Positions 36,879 to 38,607 of a DNA stretch of 38,910 nucleotides are shown piece by piece. Origin of the DNA: Nanobdellota archaeon (GTDB lineage Archaea > Nanobdellota > Nanobdellia > Pacearchaeales > GW2011-AR1); contig JAFCCD010000007.1 of NCBI GenBank assembly GCA_017610405.1, forward strand, positions 1 through 38,910, read 5' to 3'. The position numbers were made by a program, and so were the translations under genes. Under the pieces are notes generated by a model. It worked only from the letters and a program-made list of their open reading frames with translations. It made no database searches and was not told where the DNA came from. Position 1 is the stretch's first letter. Each line of letters starts with the position of its first letter.

Positions 36879-37919
36879 ATGGGATTAAACATTCGGGATA
36901 TTATTCCAAGAAAAGAAATAGAATTTTCTGATTTAAAGGGAAAAATAGTTTGTGTAGATGCATATAATATGCTTTATCAATTCCTTTCAACTATAAGACA
37001 ACCAGATGGAACTCCTTTGATGGATAATAAGAAAAGAATTACAAGTCATTTGTCAGGAATTTTTTATAGAAATATAAATCTTTTATCAGAAGGAGTAAAA
37101 CTTATTTATGTTTTTGATGGAGAAGCTCCTGCACTTAAAGTAGGAACCCATAATAAAAGAAAAGAAAGCAGGGAAATTGCTAAGAAAAGATATGAAGAAG
37201 CAAGACAAAAAGAAGATATGGGTTCTATGAAAAGATATGGTAGTCAACTTATAAGATTAAATAATAAAATGATTGAAGAGAGTAAAGAGCTTTTAGAAGC
37301 TATGGGAGTTTTTACAATTCAGGCTCCTAGTGAGGGCGAGGCAGAAGCATCTTATTTAAATAAAATTAAGAGCGATATTTATGGAACTGTGAGTCAAGAT
37401 TATGATTGTTTACTTTTTGGGGCACCTATGCTTATTAGGAATCTTGCATCTGCAAGAAAAAGAAGAACTTTTTCAGGATGGATAGAAATAAAACCAGAAT
37501 TAATTGAATTACAAGGAGTTTTAAATATCCTTGAAATAAATTTAGATCAGTTAATTTGTCTTGGAATTTTAGTTGGAACAGATTATAATCCAAAAGGTAT
37601 TCCCGGAATAGGGCAAAAAAGAGCACTTGATATTGTTAAGAAATATAGGCAACCTGTTTTGATTTTTAAAGATGTTGAAGAGCAGATAATGAGTCTTCCT
37701 AAAGAAGATAGATTTGATTGGAAAGAAATATTTGAACTTTTTCACAAACCAGATGTAAAAAATTTTGAAATTGAATTTAAAAAAATAGATGAAGAAAAGA
37801 TAAAAGAGATACTTGTTAAAGAACATGATTTCTCTGAAGAAAGGGTTGAAAAACAGCTTGGAAAATTAAGAGAGCTAAAAGAGAAAAAGAAACAGAAAGG
37901 ATTGGGTGAGTGGATTTGA
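36879..37919 (+). CDS. fen: flap endonuclease 1
   Basis: DAYNMLYQFLSTIRQPDG, VFDG, APSEGEAE, SQDYD, GTDYN..GI.GIG, PIP QKGLGEWI. Confidence 0.98.
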   Translation: MGLNIRDIIPRKEIEFSDLKGKIVCVDAYNMLYQFLSTIRQPDGTPLMDNKKRITSHLSGIFYRNINLLSEGVKLIYVFDGEAPALKVGTHNKRKESREIAKKRYEEARQKEDMGSMKRYGSQLIRLNNKMIEESKELLEAMGVFTIQAPSEGEAEASYLNKIKSDIYGTVSQDYDCLLFGAPMLIRNLASARKRRTFSGWIEIKPELIELQGVLNILEINLDQLICLGILVGTDYNPKGIPGIGQKRALDIVKKYRQPVLIFKDVEEQIMSLPKEDRFDWKEIFELFHKPDVKNFEIEFKKIDEEKIKEILVKEHDFSEERVEKQLGKLRELKEKKKQKGLGEWI

Positions 37920-37930
37920 AAAAAGAAAGA

Positions 37931-37955
37931 TTTAAATAATCAACATAATTATGTT
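37931..37955 (+). promoter_or_regulatory. vapBC promoter with palindromic operator
   Basis: TTTAAATA 37931-37938, then perfect 14-bp palindrome AACATAATTATGTT 37942-37955. Confidence 0.7.
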
Positions 37956-37959
37956 ATTT

Positions 37960-38172
37960 ATGGTAAGTATAACTTTATCTATTCCTGAAGAAACAAGAAA
38001 AATAATGAAAGAATTTCCAGAGATTAATTGGACTCATTTAGTTAGAAGTTCAATAGAAGAGAAAGCAAAAAAACTTATTCTTAGAAAAGAATTATTAAAA
38101 AGGTTTGAAAAAGAGAAAGAGTTTATTGATTGGAGTGTTGATGTGGTAAGAAAAGGAAGACATTCGAAATGA
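37960..38172 (+). CDS. vapB: ribbon-helix-helix antitoxin (VapB-like)
   Basis: MVSITLSIPEE...M...PEINW..LVR..IEEK; ATGA overlap with PIN gene; ATG 37960 at leaderless distance from TATA. Confidence 0.82.
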   Translation: MVSITLSIPEETRKIMKEFPEINWTHLVRSSIEEKAKKLILRKELLKRFEKEKEFIDWSVDVVRKGRHSK

Positions 38173-38576
38173 TTTTAGTGGTTGATACAAATATTTTATT
38201 TAGTTTTTTTTGGAAAAATTCTTTTATTAAGAAGATTTTGACTTTTCCAAAGGAAAAATTTATTTCTCCTGAAATTGCTTTTATAGAATTAAAAAAATAT
38301 TCATCTTTGATAATTAATAAAACTAAACTTTCTAAAAAAGAATTTGCTTTAGAATTTAAGAAACTTAAATCAATAATAAAAATCCCCCTTAAAAAAAATT
38401 ATAAGGATTTTGTGAAAGAAGCAGAGGAAATTTCTCCAGATATAAATGATATAGGTTTTTTAGCTCTTTGTTTAAAATTAAATCTTCCTCTTTGGAGCAA
38501 TGATAAGAAATTAAAAGAACAAGATAAAGTTATGGTTTTGAATACTAAAGATGTTCTTGAGATATTTTTGGATTAG
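38169..38576 (+). CDS. vapC: PIN-domain toxin (VapC-like)
   Basis: VVDTNIL, E, DINDIGFLAL, WSNDKKL acidic tetrad. Confidence 0.9.
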   Translation: MILVVDTNILFSFFWKNSFIKKILTFPKEKFISPEIAFIELKKYSSLIINKTKLSKKEFALEFKKLKSIIKIPLKKNYKDFVKEAEEISPDINDIGFLALCLKLNLPLWSNDKKLKEQDKVMVLNTKDVLEIFLD

Positions 38577-38607
38577 GAAACAAAAGGGTTTAGATGAATG
38601 GGTTTAA
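38577..38607 (+). pseudogene. displaced second copy of the fen1 3' end (KQKGLDEWV*)
   Basis: G AAA CAA AAG GGT TTA GAT GAA TGG GTT TAA versus fen1 37889-37919 G AAA CAG AAA GGA TTG GGT GAG TGG ATT TGA, 23/31 nt identical. Confidence 0.85.

Follow-up and report, generated by a model that had tools for sequence, protein, structure and literature searches.

The window analyzed here is a stretch of 38,910 nucleotides, the entire contig C12 in the assembly of a Nanobdellota archaeon (G000 below). The organism is a very small archaeon; its assembly measures 388 kb, is 72% complete, and has a G+C content of 29%. Near the right end of the window lies fen1, the only copy of the flap endonuclease gene in the assembly, and directly behind it stands a two-gene toxin–antitoxin (TA) cassette of the VapBC type. 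Behind the cassette, the last ten codons of fen1 appear a second time, as an untranslated orphan that abuts a convergent gene (Table 1). The cassette thus sits between two copies of the same gene tail, an arrangement that recurs in related archaea.

Table 1. Features at the fen1 end of the window (positions of the whole stretch)
Feature	Positions	Strand	Basis
fen1 (flap endonuclease, 346 amino acids, intact)	36879..37919	+	Pfam XPG_I 3.8e-20, XPG_N 9e-17
Repeat copy 1: active fen1 tail, G + KQKGLGEWI and stop	37889..37919	+	Direct reading and comparison of tails
Cassette left end: 8-nt spacer, BRE/TATA-like AGATTTAAATA, palindrome AACATAATTATGTT	37920..37959	+	Nucleotide conservation in 8/8 aligned cassettes
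vapB-like antitoxin, 70 amino acids from ATG 37960	37960..38172	+	Sub-cut-off VapB_Sulfo match and complex model with VapC
vapC-like PIN_2 toxin, 135 amino acids	38169..38576	+	Pfam PIN_2 1.3e-20
Repeat copy 2: orphan fen1 tail, G + KQKGLDEWV and stop, untranslated	38577..38607	+	+1 frame relative to vapC
Convergent gene, 3' part (membrane/secreted protein, cut by contig end)	38608..38910	-	Stop 38608-38610 abuts orphan stop

The two tails are readily aligned codon by codon (all tail peptides quoted here end at a stop codon). The active tail reads AAA CAG AAA GGA TTG GGT GAG TGG ATT TGA (37890-37919), and the orphan reads AAA CAA AAG GGT TTA GAT GAA TGG GTT TAA (38578-38607), with a single G (38577) between it and the vapC stop, TAG at 38574-38576. 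Both copies begin with GAAACA (37889 and 38577). Of the 30 positions, 8 differ: 5 are synonymous third positions, 1 lies in the stop (TGA/TAA), and 2 change a residue (G/D and I/V). The FEN1 C-terminus has the form Q-x-x-L-x-x-W-I, of the PCNA-interacting protein (PIP) box type, and we take this tail, by analogy with archaeal FEN1, to be the PIP box. A preliminary description of the window had reported the orphan, each of these differences, the shared GAAACA, the orphan TAA (38605-38607) against the convergent stop, and an upstream copy that leaves the PIP-type tail intact; direct reading and the listing of open reading frames (ORFs) agree with it in every detail.

Chance similarity and assembly artefact were both considered and rejected. 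Among the 774,878 30-mers on both strands of the 388-kb assembly, the orphan is the only one within 8 mismatches of the active tail, and 2 more lie at 9. Local alignment of the cassette flanks gives z = 5.4 against 60 shuffles. One result speaks against the observation: an exact-seed repeat search with 7-nt seeds misses the pair. The longest exact word that the copies share is short, so the repeat is visible only by alignment or translation. Logan contigs of other sequencing runs cover the structure: those of run X1 span 37422-38596 and 38578-38634. Run X2, which belongs to another study, adds a 6.6-kb contig of about 91% identity that covers 37000-38605 and follows the window to the last base of the orphan before diverging. 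The structure is therefore not an artefact of the G000 assembly. The contigs of runs X1-X3 all stop, or part from the window, precisely in the last bases of the orphan (38605/38606), and the X2 sequence beyond it resembles that behind the orphan in two related loci, L097 and L101 (...TTAATTCTTTAGTAGT...); the junction at the orphan end seems to be polymorphic in nature.

Read-through of vapC was also rejected as a source of the orphan in the window: translation past the TAG gives ETKGFR and a stop rather than the tail. The preliminary description had named such read-through as a finding that would speak against its account. The frame of the orphan and its spacing from vapC differ between loci, and in one of them, L100, it happens to lie in frame after a TGA. 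Two further fen1 fragments in related assemblies (G022:C14 and G018:C35) proved to be contig-end pieces. A scan of 456 ORF ends in G000 for tail copies within 1.5 kb and at most 7 mismatches, a threshold that excludes the fen1 pair itself with its 8, returned one low-complexity match (0 with a reversed query).

The inserted unit measures about 0.69 kb, far below 20 kb, and holds only the promoter/operator region, vapB, and vapC. The TATA-like TTTAAATA (37931-37938, within AGATTTAAATA) lies about 26 nt ahead of the ATG at 37960, and the perfect palindrome AACATAATTATGTT (37942-37955) covers the expected transcript start. From these positions, AGATTTAAATA would be the cassette promoter, with a TFB recognition element (BRE) and TATA box, and AACATAATTATGTT is likely the VapB operator. 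An alternative upstream ATG at 37951 would give a VapB of 73 amino acids. The start of vapC overlaps the stop of vapB as ATGA (38169-38172), the translationally coupled layout of a small upstream antitoxin gene. No integrase, transposase, or recombinase was found in the unit by ORF listing and Pfam, in agreement with the preliminary description, and an inverted-repeat search found no terminal inverted repeats at its two ends. The G+C fraction of the cassette is 0.22-0.26, against 0.27-0.33 for fen1 and 0.29 for the genome, a difference that is not decisive. Scans for sigma-70 promoters, the wrong promoter type for an archaeon, and for terminators gave nothing above shuffled sequence. No tRNA gene adjoins any of 13 related loci, and the two tRNA genes of the window both lie far from the cassette.

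We assign the cassette to the type II TA modules of the VapBC type, with toxicity and neutralization as predicted activities. VapC matches PIN_2 (PF10130) with 74.4 bits against a cut-off of 22.4, and its 22.2 bits to the classical PIN family (PF01850) fall just below the cut-off of 23.6. Residues D6, E40, D91, D94, and D112 are invariant in 8/8 aligned relatives and are presumably catalytic, by analogy with other PIN toxins. The VapB-like protein has no Pfam family and matches NCBIfam VapB_Sulfo weakly (2.8e-5, below cut-off). A structural model of the VapB–VapC complex scores 0.81 (0.77, 0.83, and 0.81 in three runs) against 0.00 for the best of three controls, and the mark for this score is reached by 58/80 solved complexes and 2/110 mismatched pairs. 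The partner's predicted local distance difference test (pLDDT) score is at least 82, and at least 94% of contacts are shared. In the model, the VapB C-terminus lies over the PIN active site; the score may partly reflect likeness to solved VapBC complexes. VapC itself matches no solved structure by sequence below E 0.6. The model suggests that VapB binds VapC. Among plasmids and phages, the only relatives found were PIN proteins below 30% identity (haloarchaeal plasmids, one Runella plasmid, and Halobacterium phage ChaoS9).

The nearest relative of G000 preserves an empty site. This genome, G014, is its sister on the fen1 tree (support 96/95), with FEN1 87% identical. Its fen1 has a single tail copy, directly followed by the orthologous convergent gene, stop against stop. 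Relative to this site G000 therefore has 688 bp more, made up of one repeat copy and the cassette, and the orphan occupies the position of the tail in the empty site. An insertion of this size, as the preliminary description had proposed, is thus supported.

Recurrence extends the case beyond G000. A homologous vapBC lies directly behind fen1 in 4 of the 28 loci of the genus with enough downstream sequence (G000, G025, G029, and G030). Scans with a VapB alignment over GTDB species genomes and metagenome contigs bring the total to 14 distinct fen1-linked cassette sequences in related DPANN archaea, in records labeled Woesearchaeota, Nanoarchaeota, or Pacearchaeota, and the carriers are scattered over the fen1 tree. 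The locus is thus no isolated case, and a reading of it as a one-off element is only partly right. All 13 assessable sequences have a second tail copy (11 clear and 2, G030 and L109, short), several having been read by eye from the flanks, without a score. The second copy lies behind vapC in G000, G025, L059, L060, L062, L097, and L101, and in short form in G030, L104, L109, and L113; it lies ahead of the cassette in G029, L098, L104, and L113. Only 0-14 nt separate the vapC stop from the orphan, and in 6 loci the tail stop stands exactly 5 nt before AGATTTAAATA. In a wider sample of the order, 34/401 genomes hold a VapB relative at E ≤1e-15, and 0/27 newly read loci adjoin fen1. The end of fen1 has thus long served selfish cassettes as a landing site.

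Two of these loci show further rearrangement. In G025 and G029 the toxin has been swapped: their VapC proteins share only about 34% identity with the others and with one another, whereas their VapB proteins keep 66-80%; promoter and VapB N-terminus are conserved, and the VapB C-terminus changes along with the toxin. In G029 (L018), the 1-60 nt past the fen1 stop hold, ahead of the cassette, a 42-nt insert with a 9-bp hairpin (CGTCGTTTT...AAAACGACG) and a second copy of GGGTGGTTTGG(T)TAA that is frameshifted; the insert separates this copy from the active tail.

The same cassette lineage also occupies other gene ends. In G009 (contig C43, loci L035/L069, locus positions ~1400-2200), it stands behind a PCNA-like gene. 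The repeat on its two flanks is 61 nt long, with 3 mismatches between the copies, and reaches from the stop across the intergenic promoter into the next gene, of which it includes the first five codons; this target contains AGTTGGGTTTAT, which resembles the fen1 tail. In L108 it stands at the tail of another gene. A screen of vapBC loci for flanking repeats, suggested in the preliminary description, found them at z>5 in 9/26 TA cassettes of the genus and in 7/33 of GTDB relatives (two of these being tandem arrays). In the sample of the order, the automatic test gave z>5 in 2/27 loci, L172 and L177, the repeat of the latter lying far from the cassette. By eye only, a VapB/VapC sub-lineage in other genera of the family (L171, L179, and L188) follows the end of a different orthologous gene (...KKLEKSW.KI.KL...), and a remnant of this gene end comes after the toxin; L182 has the tail copies KKIYEEL and KKFYDDL. 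Arrays of several TA cassettes separated by copies of one sequence occur in G004:C5 (L045), L074, and L092; in L045 the repeat is 102 nt long with 1 mismatch and represents the end of a small minus-strand gene. These arrays look like repeated insertion at one site.

Tail duplication is not confined to vapBC. G018 has no vapBC but only a 26-nt palindromic insert at this site, and nothing other than ATTC plus an 18-nt palindrome stands between its two fen1 tails (KKKQKALGEWV and KKKQKSLGGWV). The preliminary description had named relatives with both tails and no vapBC as a finding that would speak against its account, and G018 is in part such a case, as both tails are present without the cassette. 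Together with the second tails upstream of vapBC in G029, L098, L104, and L113, this locus indicates that tail duplication goes with the site or the process and is not peculiar to this cassette. The palindrome, G[CT]CCAAGCGTGG[CT]CAAAT, is dispersed in 18/42 genomes of the genus in up to 13 copies (0 matches to a reversed control pattern) and is absent from G000. It is usually preceded by xTTC, followed by YARAG, and placed just behind stop codons (L114-L133; for example, G018:C2:32560-32577 and G002:C2:11724-11741), and duplicated gene ends flank it in 6 of 20 copies examined. At the fen1 tail it occurs in G018, L098, L104, and L113.

Another conserved gene offers the best-resolved parallel. 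The palindrome lies behind rpS7 in 3/30 genomes (G002, G006 L144, and G029 L156), where the two tail copies encode the same peptide. All differences are silent in the rpS7 and gyrB-like cases (6/6 codon differences in L132 and, by reading, 4/4 in G029). The sister genome G024, whose rpS7 is ~98% identical to that of G002, lacks the palindrome, and between its tail and the active copy of G002 there is no difference; behind its rpS7 lies a two-gene insert (113 and 74 amino acids) without repeats. Between G002 (L134/L164) and G024:C55 (L135/L165), a tract of at least 5.8 kb that includes elongation factor 2 (EF-2) is 77-91% identical between flanks of 94-98%, and it begins exactly at the orphan rpS7 tail. 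Here the downstream rpS7 copy of G002 is the imported or diverged one, and the tail marks where a recombination tract ends.

Of the two fen1 tails in G000, the preliminary description took the orphan as native and the active tail as foreign. At the 8 sites where the copies differ, G014 has the base of the active tail 5 times and that of the orphan 3 times (3 differences to the active tail and 5 to the orphan). Among the active tails of other genomes, 13/33 are closer to the orphan than the G000 active tail is. No recombination tract was seen in fen1: the gene is nearest to G014 up to ~nt 960, and the last window (901-1020) is ambiguous (L007 0.81, L002 0.80). Parallels elsewhere point the opposite way from the proposed polarity, since the active tail of G030 resembles that of its sister G008 and its orphan does not, and in G002 and G024 it is the downstream rpS7 copy that has diverged. 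The proposed polarity is, if anything, the less likely of the two; a clearly foreign tail immediately left of the cassette has a precedent in L113 only. The further suggestion that selection at the protein level shaped both copies fares better. In simulation, free decay of an in-situ duplicate that keeps an open frame, its stop, and at most 2 residue changes has P ~0.002, or 0.007 when polarized with G014, so one copy was probably shaped as a working tail in another lineage. A mildly informative automatic codon count over 10 repeat pairs, with boundary codons included and two pairs cut short, gave 16 silent and 5 stop-to-stop differences against 21 changing differences and 2 stop changes.

The association of cassette and fen1 is old. 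Where two carriers have the same residue, their cassette genes use different codons in 0.28-0.57 of cases, a level near synonymous saturation and about that of fen1 (0.44-0.64). No sampled carrier is close to G000 (FEN1 ≤79% and VapC ≤61% identical in the others), the toxin types of G025 and G029 are unrelated, and no recent transfer between sampled carriers was seen. The two tails are often far too alike for a cassette of this age. In G025, L097, and L100, the 3' 17-27 nt of the two copies are identical and the 5' part differs, with 0/18 differences over the last 18 nt in G025. Lineage-specific features are common to both copies (WFG in G029, S-K in L059). The repeats are thus hardly untouched relics and are presumably renewed.

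We favor, at a probability of about 55%, a recombinase-less addiction cassette that was inserted with a long target duplication (~31 nt) and has since been kept or renewed by homologous recombination through the tail. The 0.69-kb TA module would have entered the last ten codons of fen1 and duplicated about 31 nt of its target. The upstream copy, with its own stop, would keep FEN1 and its PCNA-binding tail whole, and the downstream copy would remain at the old place of the tail, beside the convergent gene, as an untranslated relic. In compact genomes with touching stops, only insertions with a boundary-spanning duplication would leave both neighbors intact, and cassettes may be found at gene ends because only such duplications survive. 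The repeated tail would be kept recognizable, and sometimes replaced by an orthologous allele, via homologous recombination, either by excision and re-integration through the repeat or by allelic exchange with relatives. Such service of the repeats to host homologous recombination would account for renewal, fidelity to the site, and orthologue-like, silent-biased differences. The TA pair, in a presumed addiction role, would counter-select loss by recombination between the repeats.

Several observations weigh against this account. The differences between the two tails are spread over the whole repeat, which at 22/30 identity excludes a recent simple duplication, and neutral decay fits them so badly (P 0.002-0.007) that an extra step, allele replacement, has to be assumed. 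Repeat lengths vary from ~15 to 61 nt in this lineage, and no staggered-cut enzyme was identified. Fidelity to fen1 across lineages, with the likeness of AGTTGGGTTTAT to the fen1 tail in G009, could reflect sequence-specific targeting, and a XerA-like tyrosine recombinase that could act in trans is found over cut-off in 28/42 genomes of the genus. Flanking repeats were missing, by the automatic test, at 17/26 cassettes of the genus and 26/33 of the GTDB relatives. Contigs of four runs, which cannot show rare forms and so decide nothing either way, contain no joint skipping 37920-38577, as an excised, empty, or circular form would.

The cassette might instead have arrived with its tail. On this account, which we consider rather unlikely, a diverged donor supplied the 3' end of fen1, the tail, and the cassette as one piece, joined by a homologous crossover within fen1 and by microhomology upstream of the resident tail, so that the active tail would be foreign and the orphan native. 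The silent-biased differences would follow naturally, and L113 comes close to a model for it: its tail KKKQKGLGNWV, 15/36 nt unlike the active one, stands 5 nt left of the promoter, and to the right of vapC is a short remnant, WI, that resembles the active tail. The exact 5 nt between tail stop and AGATTTAAATA in 6 loci would fit joint transfer of tail and cassette. The GATTAR at the end of vapC has its match at the left repeat boundary in G009 and L101, and the G002 tract of lower identity starts exactly at an orphan tail. The window itself fits this poorly, as fen1 stays nearest to G014 almost to its ambiguous end, the active tail is the one closer to G014, the active copies of G002/G024 and G030/G008 are native-like, and no donor was sampled at these FEN1 and VapC identities. 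Site-specific integration by a tyrosine recombinase acting in trans, either a host XerA-like enzyme or the integrase of a lost larger element, would make the tails attL and attR and the cassette a cis-mobilizable remnant or a module resembling the Xer-dependent dif modules known from bacterial plasmids. Fourteen occupancies of one site, the tandem accretion of small inserts (the hairpin in G029; the palindrome in G018, L098, L104, and L113), and repeats with an identical 3' part and a differing 5' part, like a core and an arm mimic, would suit such an enzyme; the tyrosine recombinases of the genus are of ~280 amino acids, some genomes encode larger ones as well, and the palindromic motif is dispersed. 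The repeats at different sites (fen1 tail, PCNA/intergenic, other tails) have no common core, though, and vary in length, the window has no identical core, G000 lacks the palindrome, and no recombinase lies in or beside the unit. No tyrosine recombinase (PF00589) was found in G000, at 72% completeness. We regard this route as improbable.

A single ancient insertion, inherited vertically and lost many times, with a passively decaying orphan and nothing mobile today, agrees with the divergence of the cassette genes, the junction AAAGTT behind vapC that L059 and L062, which are sisters on the fen1 tree, have in common, and the ease of loss through repeats. It is very hard to reconcile with orphans far too like their own active tails, with lineage-specific features in both copies, with the swapped toxin types, or with repeat boundaries that differ between loci, and we hold it to be very improbable. 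Hardly credible, finally, is a function of the second tail as protein, an alternative C-terminus reached by splicing, frameshift, or read-through. Orphans often keep frame, tryptophan, and stop, and the rpS7 and gyrB-like differences are silent, as such a function would predict; the frame and the distance to the vapC stop differ between loci, however, and the stop is lost in L097, the tryptophan in L059, and the frame in G029.

Insertion with target duplication and renewal by recombination thus remains our preferred reading, and it can be tentatively, and with considerable doubt, generalized. The VapBC cassettes and the 18-nt palindromic mini-element may form a family of minimal mobile units that use the last codons of a host gene as attachment site, each a tail mimic. 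Such units could excise and re-integrate, or spread between relatives, via host homologous recombination with no recombinase of their own, and they would leave an essential host gene undamaged while remaining faithful to one gene (fen1, rpS7, gyrB-like, and others) across genera.

Known mobile elements offer partial precedents. Integrase-mediated islands and casposons insert at the 3' end of a tRNA gene or a conserved protein gene (EF-2 in the case of casposons) and bring a substitute for that end with them. The fen1 cassettes likewise target the 3' end of an essential gene, keep it whole by a duplicated end, and use the site repeatedly; they differ in having no integrase or casposase in the unit, a variable repeat length, no common core, and a length of only 0.69 kb, so that neither a recombinase in or next to the element nor an identical attachment (att) core marks them as an integrase island. 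Nor do they resemble DNA transposons or miniature inverted-repeat transposable elements (MITEs), which have terminal inverted repeats and a fixed-length duplication; here the duplications range over ~15-61 nt. As for integron cassettes, the 0-14 nt between vapC stop and orphan leave no room for an attC of the usual size, a judgment made by length, without a formal attC model or a specific IntI search. Compared with known type II VapBC modules, the cassette shares a PIN toxin with conserved acidic residues, a small upstream antitoxin with stop/start overlap, a palindrome over the promoter, and the predicted placement of the antitoxin C-terminus over the PIN active site; its antitoxin lacks a Pfam family, its toxin is PIN_2 rather than classical PIN, and it is known from sequence and model.

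Inserts with a duplicated target of variable length also arise by homology-facilitated illegitimate recombination and through IS1634-type transposons, and the fen1 cassettes resemble both in this respect. We know of no case in which either route has been shown for archaeal TA cassettes. An IS1634-like transposase was not seen at the locus, in an analysis that included no search aimed at such transposases. A Mycoplasma transposon of this type is mentioned in a study of bacterial restriction–modification (RM) units (Furuta, Abe, and Kobayashi 2010, PMC2853133), which provides the closest precedent. In that paper, and in Nobusato et al. 2000 as cited there, RM units insert with long target duplication by a mechanism described as unknown, and no archaeal case survived the screen. 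As at fen1, an addiction-type unit without mobility genes is flanked by long direct repeats of variable length, with a single copy in the empty-site genome; in a Haemophilus influenzae case the repeat overlaps the 3' end of the neighboring gene by 15 bp, as the fen1 repeat likewise overlaps its gene (PMC2853133). The RM repeats described there are mostly near-identical and often longer (46 to >400 bp), whereas the fen1 repeat has ~31 nt and silent-biased divergence. Judged by the repeats of that screen (>30 bp, single copy in the empty site), the window is borderline with 31 nt, single in G014, and G009 is clear with 61 nt; high identity is seen in relatives (58/61 in G009, the last 18 nt in G025) and not in the window (22/30). 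Further differences from the RM cases are the VapBC-type cargo, the DPANN host, and occupation of the same gene tail in many lineages. A literature search, which left subscription journals mostly uncovered and is no proof of absence, found no report of fen1 as an insertion site or of a vapBC cassette with long target duplication.

The locus is a new form of a known, poorly understood kind of gene mobility, real and recurrent. How TA modules move without plasmid, phage, transposon, or integron is an old open question. The locus and its relatives form a natural series of one event at a small conserved target, in organisms almost without intergenic DNA; the series runs from empty sites through young (58/61 identical) to old repeats and includes toxin swaps as well as nested insertions, and it opens the process to population-genomic and biochemical tests. 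In reduced archaeal genomes, essential replication genes can accommodate an insertion within the end of their coding sequence. Untranslated orphan gene tails can therefore flag recombination in the past, a point of importance for annotation and for the interpretation of horizontal transfer in DPANN genomes.

The surroundings of fen1 in the window place the cassette in a replication-gene neighborhood: an ORF of 823 amino acids like a family-B DNA polymerase (33842-36313, minus strand) lies just upstream. Between it and fen1 stands an ORF of 120 amino acids (36463-36825, plus strand) with a weak match to an Ada-type zinc-binding domain (E 0.035).

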